A DNA stretch of 64,000 bases from Kondoa subrosea (taxonomy: Eukaryota). A model generated the notes under the pieces. That model did not search any database. It worked only from the letters and a program-made list of their open reading frames with translations, and was not told the origin of the DNA. The translations under genes and the position numbers were made by a program. Shown in pieces: positions 11,770-46,820 of the stretch. Each line of letters begins with the position of its first letter. Within the stretch, counting starts at the first letter, position 1. The stretch is from positions 1,003,528-1,067,527 of the forward strand of contig BCIN01000008.1 of NCBI GenBank assembly GCA_039545335.1, read 5' to 3'.

Positions 11770-13217
11770 TCAAGCGCCAATACCAGCAGCTTCTCCAAAC
11801 AGAGCTTGACTATGGTGCCGCGGTCGTCAGAGCCGACAGATGTTTGCATCCCTCACACATCGTCTTCTGTATAAGTATATAATCCACCAGCATCGAATGA
11901 TCCTTCAGCGGCAGCTTCGAAAGCGATAGACCGCTCTGGATCTTCATCCGAGTCGATAGAGACAGATGAGGTAGAGTAAGACCGAGCCTTGCTTTTCGAT
12001 TTACTGATGCTGGCCCGTTTCTTTGGCTTGATGATTTCTTCTTGCTCTTCTTCCACATCCTCATCCTCTTCTACTTGAACCTCTTCCTCTTCTTCTTCTT
12101 CAGATATTTCAGCAGCTTTCTTCCGTCGCTTTTTATCATATTTGCCTTCCGCGGCATCTTTGCGACGGAAACACCCTCGAACTAGCTCTGACCAATATTG
12201 AGAGGTCTTGCAGCTTGTACAGGTACCAATAGTAGGTAGAAGGCTTTCAGAAGTGATGTACCGTTCTGCCAAACAATCGAGATGCGAGACTGAAGTACAT
12301 TTAGCCTCGGGACAGAAGGAAAAGGAAAGATGATCCTGCAGCAATCGGATCAGTGATATCCTATTGCTCACCACACAACGCGTACTTCTGTGTCAATTGA
12401 CTTCTTGCAGCATGCACAGATATGGTTCAGATCTTGAACTTTCTGCCATTTAGACCATTGTTCTACAGCCCAGTCTCGATCTTCCGTATCAATCGGATCC
12501 AAGCAGTCCTTCTGCCCATATCGCTTCGGATTCTCTCTTATCAATCTCTTGCCATCTACACCTTCTCTTCTCAAAATGATAGCTACATGATCCAAGTTTG
12601 GCCAAAAATCTCTACTAGCTAATCGTTCATTCGAGATCTTCCTGACTCAACCAGCCCTCTTATATGGCTTGACAGTCAGGGGACCATTTCGCAAAGCTTC
12701 ATCCCAAACTCTTTGCGCTTCGTCCGAATAAATTCTAATCTTTAAACCCAAACCATTCCAAGGATTGCAACTCAACATTCTTTGCAGCACAGCGATCTTG
12801 TATTGGAAATGATTGCCTCCTTTGCCAGGTTGAGCAGTAAACCAAGCTTGACCTTGATCGTTTCTCAAATGTCTAGAAATCTGAGGTTTCTGCCAGGCCC
12901 ATTCAAATTGCAAAGCAGCTAGTTTGGATGGGAAACCATAGACGTTGATCTCCATTTCCCAAGGCCGAGCCCATCGGGTTTGCATGGCTCCGCCTGCTTT
13001 TAATTCACCGTTATGCTGACGGATTCGACGAGGTGGATCAGGTGAAGAACCGATATAGGTGCGATTCGAGAAGACGCCATCTTTCTTACTGTACTCCGTG
13101 GTGAGATTGTGAAAGAGAAGTGGTACCGAGAACTTACGAGCGTAAAAGATAGCAAACATAAAGAGTAGGAAAGACGTGATTCGTCGAAGTAGAGCGAGAA
13201 GAAGTGGTAGGTTTCAT
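11770..13217 (-). CDS. SLX1: Structure-specific endonuclease SLX1 (GIY-YIG plus C-terminal Cys/His zinc domain)
   Basis: VCYLLRS|...[20 protein letters not shown]...[19 protein letters not shown]-terminal CACC...[14 protein letters not shown]...GTCTSC. The last exon and stop (11770 vs 11853) are uncertain. Confidence 0.9.
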
Positions 13218-13597: not shown

Positions 13598-15759
13598 ATG
13601 GCAGACAAAGCCAGTATACTACAGCAGAGCTTTCAGTCTGAGGCTGTATCTCTGAAAGTGACGTTCGCTAGAAGAAGGCTACAACAAGAAAAGCTCGCAG
13701 CTTTGCCAACATTGGGTTCCGTGCAGCAATATCAGCATCATTGTATCAACGGAATACCGATCAGCTCGCCATACTTCACACCGCTTCGTGATCTTATTGA
13801 ACGAATTCCAGAAATCTCTGCAGCCCGTATGTGTCAATTGGCAGTACTCTGCGGTGTCCCAATCTTGAAAAACGGCAAACGCATACAGAATCAGATTGAG
13901 ATACGATCAGAGCTGCAGCGCTGTCAATCGATGGTCTATCTTAATCCTCCTATCCTCTTGGCCGACGCTGCACCTACCAGATATGACTACACTTGTCGAT
14001 ACCTTATGCAAGAACTAGCCCATTTGTTTGATGATCTGAATTTGCGCAAGAAGGTGAAACGGTCTGGAGCCCACGATCCCTATTGGCATTGTCTTCGCAA
14101 CGAATTAGCCAAGCAATTCAGACAAGATCCATTGCTCGATGGTACCATTGATCTTAGCCGATACAAATACCTACTGAATTGTGAGTTTCTTCCGTCTTCT
14201 GGCTTGTGCTATCTTCAGAAGCTGTCTCAGTGGTCGGAAAGGCGTCTAAAGATCACATCAAAAAGCTTCGCAAGCTTCTAGATTCTGTACATCAGCAGAA
14301 TGTTTCGATTGAGCCCTCGTCACTTATCAGCACTTTGCAGCAGGACCCGAAACCTCAGCATTCCTCAACCGCTCAAGCTGGTTCTCTTGATAAAGCTGAT
14401 GAGGGATTCGACGAAGAAGGTCAAGATGAACCCGCTTCGACACAACATGAGGCACAAACCATTGAACAAGTCTTTGGCTCTACCACTTCTCCTTCTATTC
14501 CTGAGGTCGATGACTCTGACGAAGAGGAATCTGGCGATGAGAGCTTCTCGAACTGCGAAGCCAGCGAAGAAGATGGACCGGTCGCTTCTATTGGAGAAAC
14601 AGATCTCCTCGTGCAAGATCCTTCATATACAGCTGCAGCTTCTACGTCGCAAAAAGGTGTTTCTGCCGACGTGTCTGAGTCTGAAAGTACCTCTTCGAGC
14701 GAACAATTGATCAAAGAGGAAGATGAAGTCGTTCTGATTGATGAAAAAAGACAGCCTTCTGCTGCAAGTAACGCAAGGCAACTCAGTGCTGCATCCGGAT
14801 CTGAAGGTTCCTCTGCAAGCGAGGAGTCGAGCGAGGAGGAAGATCAAGTCGTCACAATTGTTGAAGAAAGACAGCGAGCGCCATCTGATACAAACAATTC
14901 AAGGCAGTTTGGTGCTTCAAGCTCTACTCAACCTCAATCTTCGTCCGTGAAATCTGTAACACTACAAGCATATGCACATTCTCGCCAGGATACGCGAGTA
15001 GGCCCAGCTCTGACAATTCATCCAAGTCAGCAAAGTCGCAGAAACGCTGTGCCGACGCATTCTCATGTCCCTCAACCCACTCTCTTCCGTCTTGGGAAAG
15101 GCAGCAAGTTCGCAACAAGGGATGCCTTGATCTACGCTCTTTCTCTAGCAGTTCCATCGGATGAAGGTTGGTCATGGGACTTGGATAAGACTTCATCTTT
15201 GGTATTACATGCATGGTGCAACCAGTCGGGGAAGAGAAGGTTGAGGTGTAAAGCTGGTGCGAAAGCTACATGTGACGAGAACGGTACTTGGTATGTGCTG
15301 CTGTCGTTTGACTGGCCGCACCTAATGCGTATAAACAGGACAATCGTCAATTTCGAGCCAGGTCATCAACCGCATAAAGATGCTCCTCATCCATCTACCA
15401 TTCTTGAGATTTCTCTTCCTGATCATTACCGCTTACCGACTCAACCAGTTCAAGCTCCAAATCTCGCTTCTTCCGCTGTCGGTACTTCAAATAGATCAGA
15501 GGCGGACGAGGATCTGCTTGCTATTCTCAAAAGCTGCATGAAGGACGATCTAGCGAAGAAAGTTGCTCTCATCCTAAACAAGGAATCGATTACAGTCAAT
15601 GATCTCGATGAAGATTTCGCAGCTTATCTTGCAAGTGGAGAGATGAAGATGGAGGGTCTATCGGGATTTGAAGAGTTTACCGCGAAGAAGAAATTGGGAG
15701 CCTGGTTGGAAGAAAAGATTGCGAGAAAAAGAGTAAAGCTTGAAGAAGAGTTGCTTTGA
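13598..15759 (+). CDS. Family member A: HxxRNE module, acidic linker, Mutator/FAR1/WRKY-GCM1-like zinc finger, SAM-like C-terminal domain
   Basis: ORFs 13559-14281 and 14206-15759 joined by intron ~14181-14230; second intron ~15291-15338. Spliced WCNQSGKRRLRCKAGAKATCDENGTW|TIVNFEPGHQPH. Clear similarity to genes at 18930 and 29105. Confidence 0.75.
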
Positions 15760-16316
15760 GGATAGAAGATCGAAAATTTATGCAGTGCTATTGTAAGTCA
15801 ACCTACCTCGTATCGTGTAAGCTGATAATTGTCATAGCAAATCATCTTTATTATACATCAAAATAGCGCTGGACGCCTATCATGTCAATACCTTTATAAG
15901 CTGGAAGCAGACCAAGTCTTGCTTCGTTCAGGCTGAGAATCGTGTATATACCAGATCATGGGCAGCTAATATTATGCTACTGTTCTACTGATGCAATCAC
16001 TACACAAGCTCGATCAACCTTGAGCGAAATCACATTGGCTGCCTTGACCTCAACCGACCGAATACATTGATCACTTGCATAACGATAGTGCTGGTTGGTG
16101 CTGGAGACTTGAGATACCACAGGCCGTGCTGTTATACCCCTTGACAAGATACCTCGAGCGCGTTTACTTACAGTAATTACGTCCGAGGTTGGAAAGCTCT
16201 TGTCTGCCTTCAACTGGCCTTCTATACCTCTTCTCTTCTCTCGTTCATCTCAGCGCGATTGCGTAGACTGCTTTATCTTCTTCCTTGCCCTTCTGCTCTA
16301 CTCTACACCAACAAGT

Positions 16317-17098
16317 ATGGCCAAGAAGCGTAAGCCGAAGCAGCAGCATTGCGACGAGTACAGAGGAGGGAAATTTGCTCAACTCACAGTACGCAAGAGC
16401 AAGCGGCGCCACGCGGATTGCGCAATTAATCTGATGATTTTGGGAAAGATTCAGAGAATGAAGTTGATGATGATTTCGAGGACCCCAAGAATTCGAATGG
16501 AGCGCGCTCAGGTAGTACTTCTTCCTCTTCAAAGTCGAGTTCCGACGATGCAGAGGACAGCGAATCGGATAGCTCCAGCTCAGATGATACGGAAGGTAGT
16601 ACTCATATTTCAGCCACCCAAGTCAATATCAAGCAAGCAGAGGGTGCTGTTGTATCATTGCCGACCTTTGTACTGCACCGCAACAGCATAATTGGCGACA
16701 ATACTGGTGCTTTGTCACCTAGACGTTCTGGAACACGTCTTGCTCGCTATCGGAAATCAGCTGCTTTAGCTCGAACTTTACCCATTACCCAATCAAAAGA
16801 GATTGCTGAAGCAGAGATGTTTGCCGAATTGAGGGTCCCTTTGAAGGGTTACGAAAGTACAGCGGTGAAGTTGGCTATCCTCTTCACAGCACAGAACATC
16901 AAGATCAATGATTTCTTTGATCGAGCTTGGTTTCCTGCTTATTTGGCGAGCGCTAGTTGTGATTTACCTACTTTGAATGCCCCAGAGAGATTTATGGTTA
17001 AAAGAAAGTTGGGTAACTGGTTAGAGGTACAAGAAAGAAGTCGTAAGAGAGCAAGCTGTGAAAGCGTTGAGGAGGACGACGAAGAAGAAGAAGAATGA
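16317..17098 (+). CDS. Family member B: short protein with acidic/Ser-rich region and SAM-like C-terminal domain only
   Basis: C-terminal ...KLAILFTAQNIKIND...PAYLAS...LNAPERFMVKRKLGNWLE aligns by eye with the C-termini of members A, C and D. The 5' exon structure (frame change near 16430) is uncertain. Confidence 0.55.
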
Positions 17099-17366
17099 AC
17101 AAGGCGGGTTCTCGATGGTATGTTGGCAATTCTTACCTAGAGACACAATCTCAAGTACTGATAATGCTTCTGTTCCGTACAGCTGCGCCAGCGGAAATAC
17201 TAACAAGTGAGCATTGTATGTTGCAGAGCTATGCGTGCTGTACAGGATATTTTAACTCTCGTCAAGTTCCGCCTTTGAGTGCATTACATCGGGAATCATG
17301 TGCGAGAAACGACCGCTCTTGTCTATCTATTCATTTCTACAAGCATGCATCTGTCTATTTACCACT

Positions 17367-18593
17367 CTACTCAGCCAGGACTTTCGCAGCCATCTCTTTG
17401 AGTTGTACTTCTGCTTTCTCAAATCTTGCCAGAGCATCTTTTTGCAATGATAGAACAGGTTCTTCAGCTAAGACTTTCTTCAACGTCTCTTCGCTAGCAT
17501 CTACTACTTCAGATTGAGGCATCTTGAGCGCCCTATCCCTCAGATCTTCATAATGCTTATCGAAAGGAGTGGAAGCGAGAACTTCCAGGGCAGAAGGGGA
17601 TAGTGTAATGTGAGGGAGACCGCAGAGTGACATGATCTCGTCGGCAGTGACAAGACTGCAGCAAATCTTCAGTTTTGTAGACTGTTCAACAGAACAGGCT
17701 TACCTGGCAGCGAGAAGTTCGGTAGATGCACCCATTGATCTATAAGCTACATGAATCGCTCGAGAGACTTGAACACCTCGCATTTCGTTGAGCGGATCTT
17801 TGTAGATGACATGTTGGGAAGGTTCAAGGTGGACCACTGCGAAACGATTCAGCATTAAGTACACCAGAGAGCTGTTTTAAAATACCTAAAGGATTTACAT
17901 AAGGAGCACAATACCGACAACCAGCTTTTGCAGCCGCTAAACCTTGTTCAAGCGAGAAACAGGTAGTAGCCAAAGTTCTCAAGCTATGCTCTTTCTCCAA
18001 AACAGCACATGCTTGCAATCCTTCCAGAGTAGAAGGGATCTTAATGCATACTCTTGATCGAGGGAGACCATGGTCTTCATACAAAGATGCTAGTCGAAGT
18101 GCTTGAGCTATTGTTGCATCCCTATCTGAAGCTTGACTTGGGTTGGTTTGAGCGTGTAAGAAGCCAGAGGGCTCAAGATGAGGCATGACCAGCATTCCAA
18201 GATGAACGGTCTGCATAGAATCAATGGAGCAGATATTTATGTAGCTTTGAGCTTACAGCGCAATCCACAGCGAATTGAGGCATGTCTGAATCAGAAATCT
18301 TGAACTTGGATTGCAATGCTTGGCCTTTCTTGACTGCTTCTCGTAGAATATGCGAATGAGCTGGTTTGCTCAGCTCTCCAAGCACAATGAGCTGATTGGA
18401 AGTCATATCGCAGAAAGCTGTAATTTGATGAGCTCAAGAATAAGGAGATGCGCATAGCTTACGCTTATGCTTAAGAGCAACTACATAGATTTCAGAAGAG
18501 ATAGAACGTGATCTGAAAGAGCGTACCAACAGCGTCATTGCAGTCAACGTCTAAGGTGCAGTGTAAGCGAAACTCGTCAAGACAACTTCGCAT
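17367..18593 (-). CDS. Transaldolase-family protein (divergent fungal type)
   Basis: MRSCLDEFRLHCTLDVDCNDA..., DMTSNQ, RVCIKIPSTLEGLQAC (Schiff-base Lys), TLATTCFSLEQGLAAAKAGCRYCAPYVN, HITLSP, DALARFEKAE. Confidence 0.85.
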
Positions 18594-18929
18594 TTCGGAA
18601 TGGAATGAAAGTGAGAAGAGAAGAGAGGGAGAAAAGTGAATGCGAAGCAAGGAGAGTATCACAAGGAACAAGACAGCAAGCTAGCAGACTTCTCCACCAA
18701 ACGGATCTCGCGGATTCAGCTTAAAAGTCGCTTCTTCTCCGAGAACAATGATGATACCCTAAACAATAGTCGAGTGCTCGTCCAAGAATGAAATAGACAT
18801 CTCCGGTCATGCATGCGCGTTTGGACCTCTTTGCAGTTTCGCTCCGTAAAAAAGAATGCCTCTGTTCTTTCGTGCCTCTTGTATACCCTGTCTGCTTGAG
18901 GGTTCCCTTGCTCTGTCGTCTGCTTTGTT

Positions 18930-21900
18930 ATGAACGAGTCTGAGAAGAAGAAGGGCAAGAAGAGGGCTCTCGAAAATGCTTGGCCTGTTGTGTCGAATAA
19001 GAAACCCAAAGTTGCTCATCTGAGCGCAGTACAGACTCTTCTCAAGCGCAAAGAATTTAGTGATATCAACCAAATCAGTAGTCGAGCGCCGTATCAATTG
19101 CAAGAGCTTGCAGGCAAATGGCTAGACAAGCAAGATTTCGTGCATCTAGATAGAACAGACTTGGTAAAAAGACTGACTCTGGAGCAAGCAAGAATGGTCG
19201 TCCGTCGGCCTTTCAAGCTGGAAGGAGACCAACTTTGGTATTCTTCAGCAACGCAAGAAATGCTCAAAAAGTGGGAAAGTACTCTTATGATCGCGGTACC
19301 TCAAGATCTATCTGTGACCTGCGCATGTCACTATTTGCGTAATGAAATTGCCAAGCGGATCGGGGAGGATCCCATGGATCATACAAATAAAATGAAAACC
19401 CTTGTTCTGCAAAATTACTTAAGGAGTAAGTCCGCTGTTGCATCTATTGTCCTTTTTTACAGACGCATGCATTCACAGACGAGGGCTTCAGAGTACGCTG
19501 CCGCATGAACCGTGATAGTATAGGCTCTAATGTATCCTTAGATCTGCGTGCGATCCGTGGCCGTTGAAGTAACTAGAGAAGCGCTGGTCAAAGTGTTTGA
19601 AACATGTGGTACTATGTAAGCCAACCATAATCTGTCATTCAATGATATTGACCGGAATGGCAGACTACATGTTTATCTGAACAGTAGCGAATATGCAGGG
19701 GTGAACATATCTGGGTCAGCCGTTCGGGGTACTTGCTTGCATCACTGACAATTCGTAGTGTGGAAACGCCGTTGCGAAACGTAAACATTGCATTCTCTGA
19801 GCCAGATTCAGTGCAAAAAGCTATCAAAATAGCAGATGGATCTATGCTTGGTGGCTTCACAATCAGAGTTCGGCCGGTAGTGGCTGCTCCGTGCGAGTAC
19901 TTCAACCCGCAAGACCCCGATCAGGCCTTGCTAGAATTGTCCGAAGACCAATGGGCGGCGGGACCCTTTGCTATGTGTGGACGACCTGTGGAAGATTGCT
20001 TCTTTGATGAATTACGGAGTACACAAGATCTAGAAGGCATGCACATTGATGGACAGAGATCACTAGCCATCAAATATGGTTTGCTTCGAGCTAATGCAGA
20101 TGTCGGATCCGCCGAAAACTTCGAGATTGTTTTACCACGACTAGTTCCCATGCGATCTAAAGTGTCTCTATCTCTGCCGATCAAGATTGGTGCACCTTTC
20201 ACGTATAAACGGACATTTGCGATCGTCGGCCTAGAAGGCTACGCTCAGCGCTTACAGCTTCAGATTCCTCCCTACTTGAATTCGCACGCCAGAATACACT
20301 TTATTCGCAATGAAGCAGCCAAGCTCCTCAAGCGAGACGTCTTCTTCGAGGGACAATTAGATGCTGATTTTTACAAGGACTTTTCGCGCAGTAGGTCCCT
20401 TCCCAGACCTTGTTAACCCGACTCAGCTCTAATACGCCCAGTCGGGTTATCTGGAATCTTGGCTAGGACAATCAAGGAGTCTGCCGAAAAGCTTTCTAGA
20501 CGACCTTTACGACAGCTTGAAAACGCAATCTCTTTGCCGGCAGCAACTGAGGTTGACCCAACATCCAATTTTGCAAACTCCTCCGATACGCTTCAGAATG
20601 AAAGTGCTGTCGGTCATTGTGGTCCTTTCACAATTCAAGGCCTCTGCATCTCCGACGATAAGTTCATCCAACTCAGAAGGGCTGATTTATCCGACGACAG
20701 CACAATCCTTTCGCTCGCTAGATCTCATAGCGTATGGCTGAGTGAAAAGGTACCTGATTCGGCGCAGCGAAAAGAGGTAGTGAAAACACTTGCTATCATG
20801 CGCAGCCAAGTCTCTGTACAGCTACCATTGCAAATTGGTGCTCCTTACCAATACTCTTCTCGTCAAGAAGTCGCCATGATCAAAGAATGCGCCAAACTGT
20901 TGGATATTTCAGCTCCTTCCTCTTTGACATCACATGCTCGTCTCCACTACCTACGTAACGAAATTGCGAAACAATTGAAGTGCGATATATATGTGGAAGG
21001 AAAGCTTGACTCGGCAATTTACGATTCACTCAAGCGAAGTAAGCAGATATGCACAGACTCTACCAGGCTAATTTATCTGCGCACAGATGGTTTACCTGGC
21101 TTTCTCGATCTGCAAAATTCCATGCATGCTCGCAAGGCTAAATGTGAGCTTGTATTTCCGCAAAGGAACTCGCTTGAACTGTTCTCTAGCCTCGAGAAGC
21201 AACGCTCTATTTCAGCTTGGTCCTACCTCAGACAAGCAGCCTATACGATTCGAGCGAATCAGTACACTAGAACCATCTCAGCGCGTATCTGCTGTCACAT
21301 CAAGCACATCTGACCTAGAAGAGCGCATCAAGGTTGAAGAGGAAGATAATCGTCCATACTTACAAGCGTCGACATCCAAGCATAGCAACGTCGTTAGTCA
21401 TGATGAACCAGAAGGAACAACCGAATCGGAGCCCGAGGCCGAGCCAGAAGCTAGTGCAGTCAATAACACAAGCAAGGCTCAGCCAATATTGAAGCTCTTG
21501 AAGGGCACACGCGCAACCCTTGTCATCGATGAAAGCTCAGAAGAAGAGGAAACCTCGAGCAGTAGCGAAGAGGAAGAGCCACCAGTCGCAAAACCTGCTC
21601 GCTCGACTTCATCAACACTCTCTACAAAAGCTCGAGCCACTCCACCTTCTCTTCCCTCTTTCCCGGGCCCAATGCCTTCACCGAATGATAATCGACCCGC
21701 GGTCAATCCCAATCCGATCTATCGGGGACCTGACCCTTACAAAGCACTCACCCGACCTAGGGAGCACCGTCCTCCTCCGCATATCAACACGCTCAGCAAG
21801 AAAAAAGCAGCAGAGTCAGCAACTACTTCTCCAGCGCAACAAGCACCAATAGCTAGTTCTTCCGCACAACGGTCTTCTCTCCAACGAAAGCCGATCGATA

Positions 21901-22626
21901 AAGACGTAGATTCTCTCCTAGATACTTCTCGGCAAAACAATTCTGCTCGAGTAGCTTCATCAAGAGATATTGCAACTAAAACAATCCGTCTAGCTAAAGG
22001 GCTTCTCTTCACGTCGAAAGAAGCTTGCTATCAAGTTTTGCTCCATTCGCAACCCGAAGATAAAGAGTGGAAATGGGACAAAAAGAGCAGTTCCGGTGAG
22101 CTTACAGTATGGTGTAGTCATGCTGGAAAGCGCAAGATGAAATGCAAATGCAAGGTCACAGCCAGACGAAACGACAATGGTCTATGGTAAGTATTTTCTT
22201 TACGAGATAGAGGCACCGATAACATTATAATTCAGGTTCATTGATGTCTTTCAACCTGTTCACGACCTGCATTCTGGACATATGGCTGTCACCAAGATCG
22301 ACGTGATTGCTCCCATTGCGTATTTATGCGAATCTCCTACGAGGTATTCTACAACTACAATGGTTCCGGTTGACGCGAATGTAGAGAAGCTTCTCGCTCA
22401 ATTCCTTGACCAGCCGCTCTTGGCTCGAGTTGCTCAGCATTTCACAAACGAAAACATCCCGGCAGTCAAGATCGATAAGCACTTACTAAACAAGCTTCGG
22501 AAGAATGTAATCGAGTGGGGAAATCTCACCAGCTTCGAGAAGGTCGAACTGATGGGCCAGTTCGAGGATTGGCTGGAAAAGGAAAAGGGACGGAAGAAGG
22601 TGAAGTTGGAAGAAGCGGGCTTGTGA
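18930..22626 (+). CDS. Family member C: three HxxRNE modules, an RRM, Mutator/WRKY-GCM1-like zinc finger, SAM-like C-terminal domain
   Basis: HYLRNEIAK (~19330), HFIRNEAAK (~20300), HYLRNEIAK (~20945). RRM-like ICVRSVAVEVTREALVKVFETCGTI...NIAFSEPDSVQKAIKIADGSMLGGFTIRV. Finger WCSHAGKRKMKC...W|FIDVFQPVHDLH. Joined through several plausible GT-AG introns. Confidence 0.7.
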
Positions 22627-22813
22627 ACAATGAGCCAATTTCTGATGCGGAAAGGCACAAGCAAGTACTTCAAGCCCCAGAATTACCCCAATGATAAAAT
22701 TCAGTAGGGCAAATCGGCAATGTATGGGTAAATGGAATGAGCTGGTACGCATAAGCATGAAAGAATGTCTAGGCAAATACAGTCTATGAAGTCTCTATGA
22801 GTATCTATATCAT

Positions 22814-24368
22814 CTATTGCATCCAAGGATAGTTCTTTCCCATCTCGGACAACTTCTTCTCTACAGTCTCACTTCGTACAAGACCTGCTTGAATATCCTT
22901 GACTGTGATTTTGCCTTGCATCACTTCCTCGACCTTCTCTTTGACCTAATCGAGAAGATCAATTCCTATGGTAGTAACGAAAAGAATGAGAACTTGCCTG
23001 AGTGAAATCTAGGAAAGGTAAAAACGGAATCTTCTCTTTGTGACAATGGTCAGCCAAATCATTACTTGAGTTTGGGTTGATTTTCTGTTGTAGTTCTGAG
23101 CCATTGTGAAAGTATTTATGTGAGAAGGTTTGCTTACAACGAAAAGAACATCCGCAGATGCAGCAGCAGACATCTACTTTCTCTTCAGACAAATAGCGAG
23201 ACACAGAATGGAGTGTAGAACTCACGTCCGAAACACCATCACCGCAAAAGAAAATAGTCGGTCTTTGATCAGCTGGCAAATCGGCATATGGCTTGAGTGC
23301 TTTTGATTTATCATGACCATAATGACTATACGAGGATGTAAGAAAGTATACAGAAGTCACAGGAGGAAAGCTTACGATTCGGGATGTCTGTATTTGATGC
23401 GGAAGTGACCATCTGGCAATACTTCTGCGTCGTTTGCGATGACTTGAATCTTGCTTGCTTCTTCCTCGCCTACTAGGTTGCTGAAGATTGATTTGATGCT
23501 GTATCAAAAAGCAACGTCAGCGCTTCAATACTCAGCGAATAATTGTAGCTTACATCGGGACCATTCCGCTGTTACATAGGACTTAGCGAAAGCATTAAAT
23601 TGAAGAGGAGGCGATATACCTCGAGACAATGACCACGGGTAAGTTCTGCTGTTTCGACCACTCCAGGAAAGGTTTGAAGCCAGAGTCGAGCGTGATAGCT
23701 AGATTCGAGTAAATTACAGCAGATCTCATCAATAAGGAGCAAAGCTGACCTTTGGTGACCTTTTCTTTGCATTCCTAGCTTCGTTCGTCAATATAGACCT
23801 CAAGATAGCATCAACGCAAACTCACCTCGAACTTATAATTCTCGTTCACGCTTTCCAACATCTCGCGGAAAGCATCCCTATAGACGCTGATCGGCCTATG
23901 GTAGGATTCTGCCAAACGGGAAGCTCACCTAAAGCCAATTGCTCCAGACAGGATATCGACATTGCCTTGTCTACGCTTCACTTCCCCGAAGCCTAGGTTA
24001 TCGGTCATCCAATCTAGCATACCAGATACGTTGAGACTGATCAAAGCAATCAGTTCTGAGCTTTCAGTTCCATAAGGCCGTGCTCACTTTCTCAAAAATC
24101 GGTCATTGGACTGCACCGACCATTACTGATATCCAGAGCTCTCAGCAATACCCTAGTGAACCCAAGAAGGAGCATACCTATCTTTGTTGGTGATCTGAAT
24201 CGCTCAATTCAGCTTCAAGGCATCTTCATCTGCTAGGCTTGAACGGACCGTTCCATCAAAGTCGCTCATCAGAAGCCACCTGAAAAGTGCTGACGTAATC
24301 AGCATCATCTGAGCGACTTTGATGGGACTCAACTTGTAGCCAGCATAAGGAAGTTGATCTTGTGTCAT
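22814..24368 (-). CDS. HAD-superfamily phosphatase (MtnX/Pyp1/PHOSPHO-like)
   Basis: Spliced KWLLMSDFDGT|ITNKDS|N|DWMTDNLGFG (DxDGT motif I), GMVP, HYGHDKS, IFFCGDGVSD|...ADVLF. Many very small exons. Confidence 0.85.
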
Positions 24369-24397
24369 TTTGGTCGTTTTTGGTGGAAAGACGGGAA

Positions 24398-25773
24398 ATG
24401 AGTCGCGGGAATGGAGCCTTCGGTGGTCATGATGCGGGATTAGTAGGGGAGAAAGGAGCTACGAAGGTCCTGCGGCATCTACAGGAGAATCCGGATATAT
24501 CGCGTTTGATATTGTCTCACAATGAACTCCGAGACAAAGGCATTCAGAGTAAGGCTGCACGTCCAGAGCTCTGTATTTAGCTTACATATCAATAGCTTTG
24601 AGCCAAGGGATCGTCCAGCTCCGCGTGAAAGGAATCCATCCGGGAATATCAGAACTCAATCTGGCGAATAACGAGATTTCGGACGAAGGCCTTCTCTCGA
24701 TCATCACCAATCTTCTTCTGCCTACTCCTCCGCTCAAACCAACTCTTCACTCGCTTTATCTATCAGCAAATCGAATAACATTACGAGACCCGAAAGTAGC
24801 AGCACTTTTGGCAACAGCTCTATCTCATCCTCATGCATCTCTTCATTTCCTGTCTCTATCTTCTCAGTCCATATATCTAGATCAATTCCTCAACCTTTGC
24901 TCTCCAACATCCCTGCGCTGTCTCTTGCTGAACGTATGCACAATCAGGAATGGTAAAACTTTGCTTAGCTTTCTTCAAGATCCGTCACGAGGAGGGAAAT
25001 TAGAAGTCCTGGAACTGAATGGCAACGATTTGGGATCTTATTATTGCCGCAAAATCTCGGAAGTGGTCATCAGCGGATCTAATACTTCTTTACTTCGCCT
25101 GGAATTGTCGGCAAACGAAAGATCGGATGATCCTGCTTCTCCTGCTTCATCTCGCTCTAATGTGGGCTCTGAGTCTGATGAACCTGGAACTGAAGAGGGA
25201 GACGATATGCCGCGATTGGAAGTGTTCTCTTCTTCTGATTCAGATTCAGACCAAAGAACTTCAAGACTACTTCGTCAAGCACTACTATTGAATCGAGAAA
25301 GGAGGAAATATACAAGACAAGCTGCTTTCACTCTTCTTTCTTTATCGCGGATCATCCTCTTAGGTAGCGAGAAACCGAAACCTCAAGTCTCATTGGAAGA
25401 AGTGTACGAACATCTTGAACGGACTTCATTACAAATACAAGAACAAAAAGAACTCACTTCCCTCTCTCATCTTACTTTCTTCCCTTTCAAACGATTACCG
25501 AATGAACTGCAGTACTCTATCTTACGGTTAGTCGTTCAGTTAGATCCTTCTCAAACAGACCAGCTATGGCCAACAAAGAATATAGTGGCTAAGCGAACCT
25601 GTATATCTCCTTTGACTGAAAATCAATTCCTTAAAGTCGTTCACTATGCCGAAGATAGAGCTTCGATCAGAAGGGAATGGGAGCAGAATAGAAGATCGAG
25701 AGGAGATGCGCGAGAGGCGGGAAAGAGAGACAGATGTTTGGAAAAGATGAATTGTGCGAGATGGGAACGATGA
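24398..25773 (+). CDS. RNI-like leucine-rich repeat protein with C-terminal F-box-like motif
   Basis: LRRs LILSHNELRDKG, LNLANNEISDEG, LYLSANRI, LELNGNDLG, LELSANE; late FPFKRLPNELQYSILRLV; intron ~24549-24594. Confidence 0.75.
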
Positions 25774-26067
25774 CAGATTACCTTGTGACAACAATTTCGA
25801 CCGTAATAAAAGGCACCTCGAGAGTATTCTAGTTATACGGTATTACTAAATCTCCATTTGCTTCGCTCTAGTCGGGTATCATGGCAATTGCATTGTTTCA
25901 CTTTAGCTTTCATTTCCCATAGTTCTGGAGTCATTGAGTTAAAGATGAGGGATACCATCGTTTTGATCGATAGCTCGACAAGTAGTCTAACTGAGTAAGC
26001 CAACTTCAATTTTCATCACAGGTGAAAACTCACACTAATCATCTGAATTCTCGTGAAAGACATGACT

Positions 26068-28085
26068 TTATTCCTCCTCTACCCACCAATGTGAGGCTTC
26101 CGATTGTCCAATGTCGTACTGCAACCAAAAGCTAGGTGCAATACTTCTCAATCCCCAGGCCACAACTCCTATTCTGGTGCTCGACAATCTGGTGATTTTG
26201 ATTTCTTGGTCGTAGGTGATTGCTGTAAGAGAAGTAAAGCTGGGAAAGAGCGTTGTGTTGAGCAGCGTGTCAAAAAGAGCAATAGGCACAGTTGCTGCAA
26301 CTCTAGTGGAAAGCTTCAGTGATTCAAGAGGTGGGAGAGTGGTTGCTTGACGCAGAACGAGGTGAAAATCTTCCCAAATAGACGCAGCTGGACTTGGATC
26401 GGTACATTTCATGTAGAGATGTTTACATCTGACAAGTCGTGGAAGAGCAAGTGCAAAGAAACCCCAGTCCCACGAGCCGCACATAGTCAGCGATTCAAGA
26501 TCATCAAGGCTGCCAAGCGCTGAATGTGGAAATTCCTGGAGAGTCATCTCTGAACCCGATTCAGATAGCCTAGATGTCTTCATAGCCATTGTTGGCTGTA
26601 GAGGTGGCACTGAATATAGAATGATCAGTCCACTCTGCAACTATCTTTCAGCCAGGCGTATTTACGGCATTTTGGTTTGCCAGACGAAACATCCACTTTG
26701 ATCTCTTCCCAACCAACCAGCAGCATTTGCAGATCAGCATCATGTCCAGATCGAAACACATTTTTGTTTACTCTTCCCACAAACATATGCGGAGATTGAC
26801 GAAAGAACTCAGATTTGCCTGAGTCTGTTTCTAGCTTCACTTTTTTCAATCGGGGGAACAGTTCGTGACTCAACAGGACATTCATTAAGGCTGTCGAGAA
26901 AGGTTCGTAAGTGAACAAGTCAATTTCTTCCAAGCCATCAGCTAGAAAGGGGCTGATTTTGAACACTTGTTCCAAAAGGGTCGATGACAGCGGTTCTTCT
27001 TCGTCGTCAAGCGGTTCTTCTTCGTCGTCAAAATGTAGCTTCAGCTGGCGGCACCTTTTAAGATTTTGCAAGAAGAATTGCAGGGCAGAAATTGCTTCGC
27101 GATGTACGGGTATTGAATGGAGTGAAAGAGAAAGAAGAGTCGAGAAGCAGGAGGTCAAGCTTTCTAGCTGTTTTGGAATACAGTCTAGAGTTAGAGACGA
27201 GGGTTTTGAGGATGCAAGAAGAAGATGGAGATCGGAGTAAAAGTTTTCACCGGCTGGGTTGCATCTGTAGCTAAGGTTCGTGAGCCGCTTCATGGTAGTA
27301 AAATCGTAGTATTGTTCAAAGCTATTCCATCCAGCCGTAAATCGACGAGATTCGGAAAAGCCGACGACCAATGTAGCAGACTGTCGTTGCCAAGGAGTTC
27401 CAGAAGATTGGCCCTGCATTGCGACAAACTATATCGAACGATGCCACCGGAAAATGGACACGAGGCAAGCAGATCTCGCAAATTTGGAAGGATGCTGTAG
27501 TCCTCAATTTCGTTTGCCGACACGTCCTCATCCTCGACTTCGTAATGCGATCTTTGCCAACAAACTTGAATGCCTATTTCCGTCACATTTGGTAGCAGCT
27601 TCAGGATACGCAGGGCTCGATCAAGCCGCTTCTCGCTCAAGGTCAAGGCCCGTCTTAAGTCTGGGTAGGTTACGATGCGCCGCTCGCTGTATGGCTTGTG
27701 GATAGGTGTCTGACCCATGTCCAATCTGACACCAATAAACCAATGGATTTTTTTGACCATACCCGCAAGATCTGAATTGAACAAGGAAGTGAGGACTTCT
27801 TGACGGTGGGCCGTGATATCGATGGTCCGGTAAAGTTCGGGGAGAAAGGCATGATCTGGAAATACAGCAGTTAGATGACAGAGACTGTTTGCGCATAACA
27901 TGATGCTACATACAGAAGGATTCTGTTTGATTCTAGCCATAAGCAAGCTGAACAAAAAAGCTAACGGAAGACTTACTGCAAGTCAAGCATAAATTGAAGA
28001 ATTCGTTCTGGGTTTCCAACAGCGAGTCGCTCAATAGAATGATTTCTTCCGCGACCATGCGACAGATATCCATGGGAAGAGACAT
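26068..28085 (-). pseudogene. F-box/LRR-like protein with an apparent frameshift near 27320 (pseudogene or assembly error)
   Basis: N-terminal MSLPMDICRMVAEEI..NLCLTC (F-box-like), LYRTIDI, degenerate LRRs (LPNVTEIGI, FPNLVDLRLDGI, FPRLKKVKL). Reading frame changes at ~27320 with no suitable intron. Confidence 0.55.
26989..27030. repeat. Perfect 21-bp tandem duplication (encodes DDEEEPL x2 on the minus strand)
   Basis: agcggttcttcttcgtcgtca repeated twice. Confidence 0.9.
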
Positions 28086-29104
28086 TTGTCAGGCAGAAAA
28101 TGGATTTACGCCTCAGGAGATTCAACACCAGATCCAACTTCAGGCTAACAAGACTTGCAAGAGACTAGGATGAAACCTTGACAGACTAGAAGCCACGATA
28201 CAGGCTGGAACGAGGTTCTCGAGCGCCGACCGAGCACAAGTTTGCGAGAATGAAATTTGGTCCTCTTGCGCCCAGACAATGACTTCCTTTACGTGGCTTG
28301 CTGCTCTTCTTGCTTCCTAACAGTCTCTCAATCTCCCAATCTATTGTTTCGCGCGGCTGCAAGGGTTCAGCTCAGTCTTCGATCGTTGCTCAAGGTCGAA
28401 AGCGAGTCAAGTGAATCTCGTCTGTTTCGCTGAATACCTTTGCAGAGTTTGCAGTACTTTGCAGTCTTTCGTGTCACTGCAAAGCCGTCTATGATTTTGT
28501 CTTGATGTTTGATCCTGCTTTCGATCGAATCTCAGTGTTTGTACTCACTGTACTAAGATGTTTCGCTCGAATCGCGCTGATAAAGCTTCGCGGATAGTTG
28601 TCGCTTGTGTCCTGTCGGAAGACTTCTTTAACGAGCTTCCTCATCTCTTATCTAGTCTGATTATGCATCTTACACGCATGTTCTGTCAGCCTGTGTTTTG
28701 TAGAAATCCCTACAAGCTTCACAGCTATCTAATGTCTGATATATCTGTGGGCTATGGCTATAGCTGCTCTTCCAATATCGAGCCATCATTGAATGTCAGC
28801 CTAGCTGTGTCTACTTTGAATTGGTAGCGAGTGATCTTCGCTTTCGGTTCGAAGACAAGACACTCACTAGTAAGTTACACGTGGATTAGGCTCCGGATAA
28901 GGCTGAAATCACGCGCAGGGAAGGCGAGTAAAGACTCGGATAATTCTATGTTGCTTCGGTTAAGAAACTCGAACAAATCGCGCAGCAAGCCTTAGTAAGA
29001 AGATCCTCAGGAAGCATAGCGATAGCGATAATGTAGTTATGATCTATAGACTTGTGCCTATGCCCGATCATCGTCATGCAAAACACGCTTAAGCTGCATC
29101 CGCG

Positions 29105-31641
29105 ATGTCGCTCGACAATTTGATTTTGCCAACCGAGCTGGGCCCTCTGCCAGCTCTCGTGAAAGCTCCTGATCCACCTCCGGGCTTGATGCTGCCAGAG
29201 CTCTCCGTCTCGAATCCCAAACCTCTATTGACGATTCGAAACCTCGAAGCTTTCGCTCATCCTGTCCTGAAAGACTTGGCTACTCTGGTCAGTACTACTT
29301 TGGAAGAAGAAGCATGGTATCACGGAATGACAGAGCCTCAATTGTTGCATGTGCTGAGGCTGTTGAAGGATCAATATGCCAACAACTCTTACAATGGTTG
29401 GTCCATCGATGATCCAAGATGGGATGCGCTCAAGCAGGCAGGTCCTCTTGATAAACTTACACTGGATCAGCTTTATGCCCTGACTTCGATTTACTCGTTG
29501 AATGAGCAAGTCGAAGAAGATGAAGCTTACGACCGGGAAATCGCATTAGAGAAACTTTCTGAGGCTCTCGTTGTTCTTTCTATGAAGAAACCTGTCTTGA
29601 TTGGTGCACCTTATCTTTACAAAGAGAAAGTTGGCGCAAATACTCGCGGAAATCTCCTCAATCTCTTTCGCGAAATCGGTCTCGTCACTCCGCAACACCT
29701 GCAAGGTCACGCTATCTATCATCACTGTCGAAATGAGATTACTCGTACTATCGGAGAAGATCCTTTGTTGAATGGTGAATTGAGTGTACCGCGAATGAAT
29801 ACGTTACTCAAGCGTGAGTTTTGCGTAACCATTGATATGGCAAACGCTGACTGAATTGTAGGCCTGCAAGAGATCAAGCGTGGATCTACCGAAGCTAGAC
29901 CGCCTGTCAGCCGAGAAACAGTCGCACCGCAGCCTCTCGCTTCGGCTCAAGCCTTGTTCGAAGAAGCTGGATCTACTTCAGAATCTGAGTCTTCTCGCTC
30001 ACCTTCTCCTAAACCACCGAAACGAGCAAGAAGAGAAAGATCACTGAGCTTGGATCCCGCTTTCAATCCAAATGTGATGTATTTCCCTCCGGCAGGTCAA
30101 CGCAAAGAAAGAAAGGTTCCTACTCTGGCTCCAGAACCTATTCCCTCCATACTGCCTACTCTCATTCAGCCCGAAAGACCTACTTTACCTGCAAGGTCTC
30201 AATCTGCTCGAGTCCCTACCCCAATCTTACCTCCTTCTAACAATCCTTTACCCAAACGAAAAACCACACCAATCTTGCCTCCCGCTACGGAACCAGCGCC
30301 TGTTGTTCCTGCATATGTTGATCGTCCTTGGCCAAGATTGGCAGATGATGATGGTCCACCTCTACCACCTTTCGATCCTAATTGGCAACCTGCACCAGGT
30401 CAACCTATTTACATGCAAAAACCGAAACCTTTTGTTTTGGATGATTTGGGTGCATCAAAGCAGAAGAAACAACAAGAAGAAAGGCGGAAGAAGAATGAGG
30501 AGAATCATAAAAGACAGAAAGCAGCTAAAGCAGCCATCGCTCGACTTCCAGCTTCAGCTCGAGTTCAACAAGAAGCAGCAAACGTTTCTGCTGATAGACA
30601 AGCTTCTGCAGCTTCCTCTTCTTCCAACACTGCCACCGCTGGTCCTTCTGCTGTCGTTTCTTTACCTAACATCGCTGCTTCAATAGCAAAAGCTAAAATT
30701 GAGAAAGCTCAAGAAGAGAAGAAAGCTAAAACACCAAAGAAAGGCAAAGTCGATTCCGCTGCTCCTGCTACAAACCAGCCAAAGAAATTGAGCAAAGGTC
30801 AAAGGAGGAAACAAAGAAAAGTAGAAGAAGAAGCTTTAGCAGCTGCGGCGGAAGCAGAGAAACTGAAAGCCAACACAGTTCATCTAGGCAAAGGACTGAA
30901 ATTCCAAGGCAAACAAAAGCTCTTGGATGCTTTCCAATATGCTGTACCGAAAGATAATGGTTTATGGGATTGGGATAGCAAATCAAGCGGTTTGGTCATT
31001 GACATGTATTGCAACAAGAGCGAAAAGAGAAGAGTCGCTTGCAAAGTTGGAGTGAAAGCTACTACAGATGGCAATGATGTCTGGTGAGCTATCAATTCAT
31101 CACTGTGTGAAGGAAATGCTCATGTTATTTCGATAGGACTGTCGTTCAATTCGAAACTAATCACACTTGCCCTCGCCTACCTGGCCGAATAGCTCAAACT
31201 CTTACCGATGTCGTCCTTCCGGACAATCTTTTACCAATTTCAACTCCGCCTGCGCCTACTGAAGCTGCTGCCGGCCCTGCTCCAATTGCTTCCACTTCCG
31301 GTAACAAGCCTAAAGCGTCAAAGAAGAGAGCAAGATCGACAGATCCCTCAACTGCGAAGGCCTCTACTTCTACTCCTTCATCCACTGTTGATCCAGCTCT
31401 GCTCAAGCTATTGAACGAATGCTTGAAAGAAGAACTAGCACTAAAGACTGCTAAACTCTTTGCATCGCAGAACATGGGCATTGAAGACATGGATGCTCAT
31501 TTCGGCGAATACTTGCAAGGACCTGATGTAGATCTTGGTGATCTATCAGCGCCGGAAAAATTCTTTGTCAAGACTTTGTTGGCAAATCATTTGCTGGGCA
31601 ATGCTGCGCCGAAGAGGAAGAAGACAAAGACTGTTGTGTGA
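29105..31641 (+). CDS. Family member D: HxxRNE module, Pro/Lys-rich linker, Mutator/WRKY-GCM1-like zinc finger (C2HC), SAM-like C-terminal domain
   Basis: IGAPYLY...GHAIYHHCRNEITRTIGEDPLLNG; LGKGLKF...YCNKSEKRRVAC...W|TVVQFETNHTC; C-terminal LFASQNMGIED...LSAPEKFFVK...KRKKTK. Confidence 0.75.
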
Positions 31642-32192: not shown

Positions 32193-33469
32193 TCAAAACC
32201 CCAAAGAATCGCTGTGCTTGCCATGGTTTGCATCCTCATACAAACTAATCCCACGTTCATCCAAAGCTTTCACCAAAGCTTTCCTTCCCACATCGCTAGC
32301 ATTGGCAAAAGACAAACTCTCAAGATCGGCAAAGTTGCTCCCTACTTTGATAGCAGAGGCAAAAGAATCAATGTCAATGTAATTCAGGTGAAGATCTTGA
32401 ACACTTTTGCTCGCAAAGACGCCGGAGGGAATTTCAGCATCATTTTGGTAAAAGAGACCGCTGATTTGTTTACTGTGAAGAAAGCAATGAGATGTAAATG
32501 TCAATGATATTTGTATATATGAAAAAGACCTTACTGCAAAGGTTGATCTTCGATTTGCGAAACACCAAGGTAAAGCAAATTGGGCAAAGAGCTGACCAGA
32601 GAAGAAGAATCGAAAGCTGGTGCGTCAACAAACATGCCAAGATGAACCAAAGTTTCTGGTAAAACAGCAATAACGGAATCGATTTGATCTTCATTGAGCT
32701 TCTTGTCGAACTCGAGATGGAAAATGGACAAGATACTGTCTTCTTTCGCTGATAAATCGAAATCTGGAGCATTAACTTTGCCCGAGCCAAAAAGTTGAAG
32801 ATGTAAACGCTGCAAAAGTGGAAAACCAACAAAGAAAGAGATTTGATCTGCCAAAATTGATTCTTTGGTAGTAAAACCACGCAATCTGACTTCTTTCATC
32901 TTGTTCAAATCTGCAGCTTCTAGCTCATCAATCACTTCATTCAAAGATGGTAAAGCTGAATGAGGTTTGCCAACACCATCGCTTGAGATATGCAAGACTG
33001 TCAAATGAGCGAAAGTGAGGACGCCTCTGAGCAAATCGACTCGAGATTCCCGCATATGACTTCCTGTAGGATAGTGCATGAAACCAAATTGAGTAATCGA
33101 TGCTGCGGCTTTAGATGAATTGCTGTTGGCCAATTTGTAAGCTTCCAAAAAGCTGCCTCGAACAGATGGATGGAAGACAAGCATAGGGCTGGATTTAACT
33201 TCAGAGGCTTTAATAGCTGCTTTTGCTGGTTTACTGAGAGACTTGCAGATACGTTGCAAATCGAGCATTGATCTTTGATAGCGAATGTATTTCTTGTGTT
33301 GCGTGAAAGCTGGTTTGGTTATAGCCATGAAAATGCGCTCTTGAAGCTCGCGAGATAAAGTCATGAAAGTAGCTGGGACAGGCTTGCGCTTCTCAGAACT
33401 GTCGAGACCTGAGTCTCTTGGTTTTCTCTTGCTGGGATTGGCAGCTTTGCCTCCTCGAGTACGCGGCAT
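32193..33469 (-). CDS. F-box/LRR-like protein
   Basis: FMTLSRELQERIFMAI (F-box-like) followed by degenerate LRRs (FPLLQRLHL, LPETLVHLG, LPNLLYLGV). The 3' end is uncertain. Confidence 0.6.
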
Positions 33470-34981
33470 ATTCAGTTAGTTAGGAGCTCAGCCGCGATGA
33501 ACTGGATTCGAGATAGGCGCTGGCAGAGCTGCATCGATGTTGGAAAGCAACCTTGTTTTGTTTTGTCGAAATTAGGCAGCTTGACGTTGGAACACGATCT
33601 CGCAATAGGAGATATTCTCAGGCGATCTGTGTAGCTCCATGTACTGACTTCCTGCTACGCGTTCCAGCTATTCTCGCTTGAATCCTTCTATCAGAGCAAA
33701 AAACACCTGAAAAGACAAACCTCGTCGCAGCGCGTTTCCAAGGCTGGCAGTCCGTTGTCAGGGGTGTCAAGATCAGCAATCCAGATCCGCATCAAGCTCG
33801 TGGCTAGGGCATTAGAGCGATATCGCCGATTCCATCCCTCAACACAGTTGTCGCTACAGTGGTTTTCCAGTAAGGTGTCTTCCTCAGTACACACTATATT
33901 TGCTACGGTCATCCTGAGATTGATATTTCGAACCTCGCTTGTTACCAGTCAGTATCAAAACTGCTGTCTCCCCTTTCGAAATCTAGTCCTCTCTTCCCTC
34001 TCTTGACTATTACCATGCTTCCACCATTGCCGTTAACGGTATTCAGTCTCTCTACTCCATACTATCTGGACTGGCCAATTCAAGCACCAGAGCCAAACAT
34101 TTACCGCTGCAAACCTGACGATGGCGAATACCTATCTTTTGCATTTCTGTCTCATGAATACTTTATACGCGTCTTTAAGGTAATCTTCACACCTCTGAGA
34201 TCTTCATCCTGACTGATATGCCTTCGCAAAGACTGGAAGAGCTTCAAGTATTGATCACTACAAATTCTCTCATTCCTGCAGAACGAAAGAATGCGATAGT
34301 GGTAGAATCGTCAGAGTTCTACGCCATATTGTCTGTCTCTCTACATTCAGCGGGTATAAGCCAAGGAATACCAGGTTGGTCCATGCCTGTTGTGGAAGGT
34401 AAATGGACCTGCGCATTGCTTGGGATCAGGCGGTTCGTCTTCTTTGTTCTCGACTGCAATCGCATGGACTGATATCTTCTGGGTAGTGATCTTGTCGCTT
34501 CGCAAACCGAGCTACTCAACATTTGTATTACGAAAGGTTTTTTATCTGCTACAGAGCATTACTTAAGTATGCTGGCTCATCGATTCGATTTGGCTTGTGG
34601 CTGATCAGACTCTAAATCAGAGGAGGCTCGATCCTTACCATCTAATTCAAGTCTCGGAGAAAGATTATTGGATCGGTTTGGTGTACCATTCAAATCGCGC
34701 GCCGTCACCAACGAATCTGATTCATCAGCAACATCTAGTCAACCTAAGATCATCGAAGCTGGTACTGAAAGCACTCATACATCTTCTGACGGCTAGCTCG
34801 AAGTTCTGCAAGGCTCCTTCAAGTAACTTTCGGATGTGCGAACCTGTGTGTATAATAGTATTTGTAATTGCATATCTTTGTCACCGCTGCTATACTGCTT
34901 TATTCATGCTTGTATTCGCCATATCGAAATTGAAGACCAACCTTGTTTTTTCCGGGTTGATCTTGCAACACGAAGTCCAAA

Positions 34982-46442: not shown

Positions 46443-46820
46443 GCGATAACAGCGCCAATCGACTAATCAGCTCGCTTTGGATCTGGAAGCAGAGCATTAT
46501 GAAACAGTTCAAGTGAACGACAGTAATGAAGGATGGAATTGAGTTATTGTATTATACACCTACGATTGCAAAACATGCTCTCTTTTAGTATCGTTACTAC
46601 CTTCTCGTGCTACTGCCCTGCTGCCCTGCTTTGGACTTTCTTGCGCTGACTTTGAGGGTTTGTCCAAACAACGGCTCAATTGTTCAAATTCGCCAGCTTG
46701 AGTCTGCAGCTCGGTAAGGCCTAGCATCAACTACTGCAGCGAAGTATTTCTGAGGCAAAATTACAGCCCAAATCTGCATGATTGCACCCAGCTCACTTGC
46801 ACCAAATTGAAAAAGCAGCA

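Follow-up and report, generated by a model that had tools for sequence, protein, structure and literature searches.

What is the protein segment that recurs five times in a 64,000-nucleotide stretch of Kondoa subrosea DNA, how did it come to be there, and what might it do for the proteins that carry it? The stretch, called the window here and counted from its first letter, is taken from GenBank assembly GCA_039545335.1 (contig BCIN01000008.1, positions 1,003,528 to 1,067,527 of the forward strand). The segment, referred to as the module, contains the motif H-x-x-R-N-E and is found in the predicted products of three clustered genes named A, C and D, where it is followed by a long linker that is acidic or rich in Ser and has basic patches, then by a Cys/His finger and a conserved C-terminal domain. 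The repeat proves to be a true protein domain, some 145 residues long, that no catalogue contains. As an observation the module is solid; for its function we infer that it most likely serves transcription-factor-like proteins as a new accessory domain, one that would contact nucleic acid, chromatin or a partner protein.

Five Copies of an Uncatalogued Domain

A six-frame scan of the window returned seven matches to H-x-x-R-N-E. Five of these lie on the plus strand within long open frames, one in gene A, three in gene C (C1, C2 and C3) and one in gene D, and they are the five copies that the initial annotation of this DNA had picked out. The two minus-strand matches are surrounded by stop codons and were dismissed as chance occurrences. 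The five copies can be aligned over some 145 columns and share invariant H, R, N, E and D residues, and the module proposed earlier thus stands as a repeat with a length of about 145 rather than about 130 amino acids. Pairwise identity among the copies is 18-36%, with C2 and C3 at 36%. C1 is divergent or truncated in its N-terminal part; it does not have the first 15 profile positions, and its match to the profile of the N-terminal half (N-half) begins at position 16.

When profiles were built from four copies and run against 1286 open reading frames (ORFs) of the window, each recovered the fifth copy at E values from 2.9e-8 to 2.9e-29 (Table 1), while the best non-member stood at E 0.2 or worse. 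A profile made from ten database relatives alone, described below, recovered exactly the five window copies (E 3.8e-18 to 4.9e-37; next 0.7). Taken together, these recoveries show that the repeat is real and far beyond chance. No sixth copy was found among the 1286 window ORFs of at least 30 amino acids with a five-copy profile, the next best E being 0.13.

The module had also been called novel, a claim that a match to a known Pfam domain was expected to overturn. No Pfam family reached the cut-off in ten scanned ORFs of genes A to D, in the 10 relatives or in the 15 members of the alignment. The sequences of the PDB held no match to the module (best E 0.018) and the ESM Atlas no usable one, and the claim of novelty was upheld.

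Relatives and the Age of the Family

An exhaustive profile search of 1.84 billion (1.84e9) protein representatives picked out 12 proteins at E<=0.001, and of these ten are true relatives (E 3.6e-26 to 3.1e-5). The other two, P0009 and P0012, are long, internally repetitive proteins that matched over profile positions 40-90 only, and were discarded. The ten relatives are unnamed, eukaryote-like ORFs of 152-313 amino acids from Logan, ENA or JGI assemblies, each of them a single-member cluster, and in all ten the ORF ends soon after the module. P0004 and P0005, both with a longest contig of 53,828 bases, probably come from one contig, which echoes the clustering seen in the window. Word-index searches turned up none at E<=0.01 among 1838 candidates when exon 1 of gene D was compared with longer proteins, none among 1359 candidates for the finger and tail of gene A, and no new relative with the 15-sequence profile, which found only P0010 and P0006 again. 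The alignment offered no stretch of sufficient conservation for a search of metagenome DNA, and a metagenome locus obtained with P0010 as the query (L001) was spurious, with 31 residues matched on a high-GC contig of bacterial type. The best reading is that the module family is lineage-restricted and rare; lineage-restricted orphan domains are common in fungal regulators.

The five window copies and the ten foreign relatives form the set of 15 sequences on which the comparisons below are based. In a tree of this set, most forks lack resolution and the branches are long. Three pairs stood out, namely C1 with P0006 (94/88), C2 with P0001 (89/88) and A with P0008 (93/89, a long-branch pair). Since window copies pair with foreign sequences, the duplications are old and predate the split from the organisms of the relatives.

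This history bears on the idea that the module is the leftover of a mobile element, in which a MULE-type transposon protein brought in the finger and the module persists as a near-functionless passenger. Fungal fingers of the WRKY-GCM1 type are described as repeatedly derived from MULE transposases in Babu et al. 2006 (PMC1702500), and the family is indeed clustered, with genes A, B, C and D within 18 kilobases. Set against this are the absence of a transposase domain from every window ORF of at least 150 amino acids, the housekeeping character of the neighbours (SLX1, transaldolase, ATG11, ATG17-like, CK2 beta and Tra1), the preservation of invariant residues and of an intron at identities of only 18-36%, and the pairing of A, C1 and C2 each with a foreign sequence and not with another window copy. 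Deep divergence with kept invariants and intron, along with the foreign pairing, argues for long purifying selection, and a relic of this kind is improbable.

Conserved Residues

With residues numbered as in C2, four positions are invariant in all 15 sequences (L66, P78, R121 and N122), and a further four are kept in 14 of them (Y87, H118, D131 and G136, with H118 replaced by D in one). E123 is kept in 13, the exceptions being P0001 with Q and P0006 with A, and the upstream H114 in only 7 of the 15. R121 and N122 are the sole invariant polar residues across the set. The family signature reads G-x2-[IVL]-x-D-x2-F-x2-L-R ... L-A-x2-Y ... L ... P-x2-I-G-x-P-Y-x-Y ... H-[YW]-[LI]-R-N-E-[IVL]-[AC]-K-x-L-x2-D-P-x3-G. 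Judged from this alignment, H-x-x-R-N-E appears as the core of a larger pattern whose fixed part is R-N, and the invariance of all four residues H, R, N and E, as put forward from the window copies, did not extend to the wider family.

The same four residues had led to the suggestion of a ligand-, metal- or catalytic site with an H/H/E pocket, for example that of a small nuclease or hydrolase. Such a pocket would fit the invariance of H, R, N and E among the five window copies and the spacing of His114 and His118 at i and i+4 on one helix. It is at odds with the substitutions just listed at E123, H118 and H114, with the structural searches described below, in which no enzyme fold or metal-site protein occurred among the consistent neighbours, and with the nature of the module as a small helical unit that is tandemly repeated inside regulator-like proteins. 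Because the proposed ligands vary and no enzyme-like fold was found, a catalytic or metal-binding role is highly improbable.

A different view of these residues came from a helical-wheel calculation on the alignment. In helix 113-128 the hydrophobic face is made up of I117, L120, I124 and L128, and A115, H118, Y/W119, N122 and K126 lie 125-175 degrees from it, with R121 on the flank. With these positions, the best-conserved polar and aromatic residues would form a stripe that faces away from the core of the domain. The R-N-E-[IA]-A-K helix was also compared by eye with two look-alikes, helix 3 of the homeodomain with its motif WFxNRR and the signature of the bZIP basic region; both were set aside, as the helix spacing misfits.

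Predicted Fold of the Module

An AlphaFold2 model of C2, made with the 15-row alignment, had a predicted local distance difference test score (pLDDT) of 86 and a predicted template modelling score (pTM) of 0.56. The model is all-helical with two short hairpins, and its six helices span residues 18-25, 34-43, 56-73, 90-102, 113-128 and 140-147. The predicted fold has no clear solved neighbour. For the module model, Foldseek returned 0 of 43 matches at E<=0.001 in the PDB and 0 of 74 in BFVD, and a re-check with VIA of 42 Foldseek candidate chains gave none at Z>=2. A Foldseek-independent VIA search of 48,161 chains had a best Z of 4.6, which is below the tool's typical value even for unmatched models.

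Among the best 50 rows of that search, seven are of the helix-extension-helix (HeH) type, all on model residues ~19-80 in the N-half and all with Z 2.9-3.6. They comprise two entries of the emerin LEM domain (2odc, Z 3.6, 46/47 residues, and 7ndy, with BAF, Z 3.5), LAP2 (Z 3.2), the SAP domains of SLX4 with MUS81 (7bu5, Z 3.6), of Hcc-1 (Z 3.3) and of Ku70 (Z 2.9), and YqbF (Z 3.1). The superpositions align 42-55 residues at a root-mean-square deviation of 2.1-3.9, and several of them cover almost the whole of the small domain. The HEH fold is described as DNA- or chromatin-binding for yeast Lem2/Man1 in PMC3337167. The likeness thus consists in the weak superposition of residues ~19-80 on whole LEM and SAP domains and in carriers that look nuclear. 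The module departs from those domains in having a longer linker between its two helices, a hairpin and one more helix ahead of the unit, and, fused to the unit, a C-terminal half (C-half) of ~70 residues with the R-N helix, for which SAP and LEM proteins offer no equivalent; nor does the likeness extend to sequence profiles (0/15). A full-text search of the literature found no paper joining helix-extension-helix, SAP domain, LEM domain and fungi.

The N-half also occurs alone, as an additional segment, in P0002 (domain E 8.2e-12). This lone N-half, together with the missing first 15 profile positions of C1, suggests that the N-half behaves as a separable unit; a candidate extra N-half ahead of the module of gene D was not significant (domain E 170). 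Comparison of the N-half with the C-half, and of either half with the SAM-like tail of the carrier proteins, gave hhalign probabilities of <1%, and there is consequently neither internal duplication of the module nor kinship with the tail.

The Closing Phase-1 Intron

All introns, exons and gene models given here are splice predictions from the sequence. Every copy of the module ends one base ahead of a GT donor, so that the donor is in phase 1 in all five, just as the initial annotation had it. The donor lies 31 codons from the core His, or 32 in C1, where a loop has one extra residue. Frame-restoring acceptors give introns of 48 to 51 nucleotides (nt) after A, C2, C3 and D (Table 1), and for copy A an alternative acceptor at 14218 (a 38-nt intron) is likewise frame-preserving. 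After C1, a simple 116-nt intron led into the wrong frame and was rejected; eight open splice paths run from its donor onward to the C2 exon.

The same boundary can be traced in the foreign relatives. In 9 of the 10, the module as aligned gives way directly to G, R, S or C and then to I, M, K, T or E, which is the translation expected when the NGT and RWG of a donor are read through, and the ORF stops 2-46 codons on; the exception is P0011. Judged by this read-through protein signature, the phase-1 intron probably sits at the same place in the foreign relatives, and its position is probably family-wide. The module end coincides with an exon end, and the coincidence is old.

Duplication or shuffling at the level of exons had been offered as the explanation, and this is supported for part of the family only. 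The C3 exon (20442-21038, 597 nt) is the only module exon with phase-1 introns on both flanks, and this symmetry fits one internal tandem exon duplication that gave C2 and C3. For A, C1 and D, whose modules are encoded in the first coding exon, gene duplication is the simpler route by which the intron came to be shared, and descent from one ancestral gene explains it best.

Carrier Genes, Finger and Tail

The gene models in which the modules reside are listed in Table 1. In the putative model of gene C, C1 is placed in one transcript with C2 and C3. To let the C3 exon reach the long downstream frame, this model includes a probable micro-exon of 57 nt (21087-21143) and after it, most plausibly, an intron of 46 nt (21144-21189, GTGAGC...TCTAG). 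The segment between C1 and C2 (19542-19945) appeared RRM-like by eye (strand-helix-strand), and a similar stretch precedes the module of P0001; no Pfam RRM family matched the two exon pieces between C1 and C2 at E<=10.

The finger has the ligand order C...C...H-x(1-2)-H/C in the spliced models of A, C and D, with an aromatic residue just ahead of the first Cys. In gene A it is interrupted by a 48-nt, in-frame and stop-free intron (15291-15338, GTATGT/CTAAT/CAG) at the same Trp codon as the finger introns of C and D. Alignment with D exposed this intron as a 16-residue 'insert', and reading through it adds 16 false residues to the finger. DSSP assigned one helix and four strands to a finger model, but its pLDDT was <50 and the modelled sequence carried the 16 intron-encoded residues. 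No WRKY-GCM1-type structure was found in VIA or Foldseek searches of a finger-plus-tail model, no match to the WRKY, FAR1, FLYWCH and GCM profiles was found in whole ORFs at E<=1 or in the unspliced finger pieces at E<=10, and the sequences of the PDB held no match to the finger. Its assignment to the WRKY-GCM1 type is therefore putative and unverified.

Babu et al. 2006 (PMC1702500) present stand-alone WRKY-GCM1 (MULE/FAR1-type) fingers as recruited regulators, among them fungal Rbf1, Rcs1/Aft and solo basidiomycete copies. The carrier finger resembles these in its helix and four strands, predicted at low confidence, the aromatic residue before the first Cys, the two Cys, the Trp strand and the H-x-C or H-x2-H ending. 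The carriers differ from the proteins of that source in that the architectures described in its available part have neither an N-terminal module nor a SAM-like tail. No paper joining WRKY-GCM1 with a SAM domain was found in a full-text search.

The tail comprises the C-terminal 85 residues and was modelled with a pLDDT of ~90. Its best VIA rows are SAM domains with Z from 7.4 to 5.2, including those of ASK3 (Z 7.4, 71/71 residues), LEAFY (4ude, Z 6.9, 75/78), CNK (6.8) and Sans (6.6), and further EphA5, tankyrase, p73 (Z 5.7) and Ste50. The top six rows are all SAM-type (Z 7.4-6.0 over 65-77 residues), and all are below the tool's line of 8. Transcription factors that pair a DNA-binding domain with a SAM-type oligomerisation domain are exemplified by LEAFY and p63/p73, and the LEAFY oligomerisation domain and the p73 SAM are themselves among the neighbours just listed. 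In contrast to LEAFY and p63/p73, the carrier tail has no Foldseek match and no Pfam SAM match (no family at E<=10 with any of the four tails), and it stands at the C-terminus, ending in a long basic helix. The fourth tail belongs to gene B (~16317-17098). Apart from the tail, this small paralogue has a basic N-terminus and a stretch that is acidic and rich in Ser, but neither module nor finger.

What the Module May Do

The preferred reading, held tentatively, is that the module binds nucleic acid or chromatin as an accessory contact domain of nuclear regulators. The carrier proteins would be nuclear and transcription-factor-like, with sequence-specific DNA binding provided by the finger and self-association or polymerisation by the SAM-like tail. 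A second contact would come from the module, by way of its SAP/LEM-like N-half and the conserved stripe of helix 113-128. In that stripe, His118, Tyr/Trp119, Asn122 and Lys126, flanked by the invariant Arg121, would form a binding surface, likeliest for nucleic acid or chromatin, and the tandem copies in gene C would add valency.

Several observations weigh against this reading. The exposure of the stripe rests on the helical-wheel calculation and not on coordinates of the model, and the conserved Arg, Asn, His and Asp could equally be a buried polar network that holds the fold together. At a pTM of only 0.56, the packing of the two halves in the model is uncertain. The HeH likeness, which the initial annotation had noted as a resemblance to HeH and SAP motifs, persists in a weak form and for the N-half only. 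Its Z of at most 3.6 is far under the tool's caution line, in a range that the tool calls common, and SAP, LEM and HeH profiles were matched by none of the 15 module sequences at E<=10, nor by any whole ORF of genes A to D at E<=1. The C-half has no consistent structural neighbour among the best 50 rows. The same caution applies to the other two parts of the carriers, as the finger has no Pfam or PDB-sequence match and a model with a pLDDT <50, and the tail has no SAM match in Foldseek and a best VIA Z of 7.4 against the line of 8.

An alternative that draws on the same residues is that the module serves for docking to other proteins or for self-association, with no direct contact to nucleic acid, in which the copies of gene C pair with each other or recruit several partners. 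The weak structural neighbours do include HeH units that bind partners, as in the complexes of emerin LEM with BAF and SLX4 SAP with MUS81 listed above; the conserved His/aromatic/Asn/Lys stripe suits a protein interface as well as it suits nucleic acid; and the proteins differ in how many copies they have, from 1 to 3. A likely oligomerisation tail is already present in the carrier proteins, however, and docking comes without a known partner, which leaves this alternative credible and rather doubtful.

A bolder form of the preferred reading, nucleic-acid or chromatin binding, can also be stated. The module would then have a novel fold that reads nucleic acid or chromatin, in which an HeH unit is joined to a helix whose invariant Arg-Asn and conserved His, aromatic residue and Lys read bases or a chromatin mark. 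Proteins that combine such a module with a finger of transposon origin and a SAM-like tail that polymerises would constitute a novel, multivalent class of regulator, confined to a poorly sampled fungal lineage. In this form the proposal is unlikely.

The Window and Its Other Genes

The window has a G+C fraction of 0.43-0.48. Its genes are dense and are split by introns of only 46-53 nt, which have donors of the form GTRNGY, branch sites CTRAY and acceptors YAG. The housekeeping genes around the cluster encode a Utp12-type WD40 protein, ATG11, an ATG17-like protein, SLX1, transaldolase, casein kinase II beta, a UvrD-like helicase and Tra1. The SLX1 endonuclease gene (GIY-YIG and SLX1_C; 11856-13213, minus strand) adjoins gene A upstream. 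The presence of SLX1 beside gene A and of the SLX4 SAP among the weak structural rows of the module is regarded as a coincidence. Between genes C and D or after D lie several long ORFs (24553-25770, plus strand; 26071-27982 and 32534-33475, minus strand) that had no Pfam match or only a sub-threshold one to LRR_6, and these may be further lineage-specific genes. The large Tra1/TRRAP gene (46782-56864, plus strand) has Tra1 central, Tra1 ring and FAT domains, and short introns split its open frames.

Table 1. Positions in the window of the module copies, their closing introns, the predicted carrier genes, and the fingers and tails.
Feature	Positions	Strand	Remarks
Module copy A	13724..14179	+	first coding exon of gene A; by alignment; core His codon 14087; leave-one-out E 2.9e-8; database-only profile E 3.8e-18
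Module copy C1	19038..19424	+	first coding exon of gene C; core His codon 19329; leave-one-out E 2.3e-10
Module copy C2	19946..20389	+	copy used for the AlphaFold model; core His codon 20297; leave-one-out E 1.8e-23
Module copy C3	20597..21037	+	within the symmetric 1-1 exon; core His codon 20945; leave-one-out E 2.9e-29
Module copy D	29369..29812	+	first coding exon of gene D; core His codon 29720; leave-one-out E 9.1e-16
Phase-1 intron after A	14181..14230	+	GTGAGT...CAG, 50 nt; spliced gene A model stays open
Phase-1 donor after C1	19426..19431	+	GTAAGT
Phase-1 intron after C2	20391..20441	+	GTAGGT...CTAAT...CAG, 51 nt
Phase-1 intron after C3	21039..21086	+	GTAAGC...CTAAT...CAG, 48 nt
Phase-1 intron after D	29814..29861	+	GTGAGT...CTGAC...TAG, 48 nt; spliced gene D model open
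Gene A model (predicted)	13598..15759	+	exons 13598-14180, 14231-15290, 15339-15759; 687 amino acids
Gene C model (predicted)	18930..22626	+	exons 18930-19425, small exon(s), 19699-20390, 20442-21038, 21087-21143 (?), 21190-22186, 22236-22626
Gene D model (predicted)	29105..31641	+	exons 29105-29813, 29862-31083, 31137-31641; 811 amino acids
Gene A finger (putative)	15082..15380	+	C-x8-C...W...H-x2-H; intron 15291-15338; finger profile match
Gene C finger (putative)	21981..22290	+	C-x8-C...W...H-x2-H; phase-2 intron 22187-22235 in Trp codon; finger profile match
Gene D finger (putative)	30875..31180	+	C-x8-C...W...H-x-C; phase-2 intron 31084-31136 in Trp codon; finger profile match
SAM-like tail, gene A	15505..15753	+	pLDDT ~90; SAM structural rows; tail profile match
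SAM-like tail, gene B	16808..17071	+	tail profile match
SAM-like tail, gene C	22372..22620	+	tail profile E 4.5e-39, own sequence in the training set
SAM-like tail, gene D	31396..31638	+	tail profile match

Possible Significance for Fungal Regulators

The module is a new domain family within a known kind of protein, the modular regulator built around a transposon-type finger. It offers a clean example of a domain boundary that is fixed to an old phase-1 intron, and is a candidate for a Pfam or InterPro entry. If the reading given here is true, a domain absent from the catalogues, with ~ten sequence clusters among 1.84 billion, would be one more accessory domain for fungal regulators of this kind.

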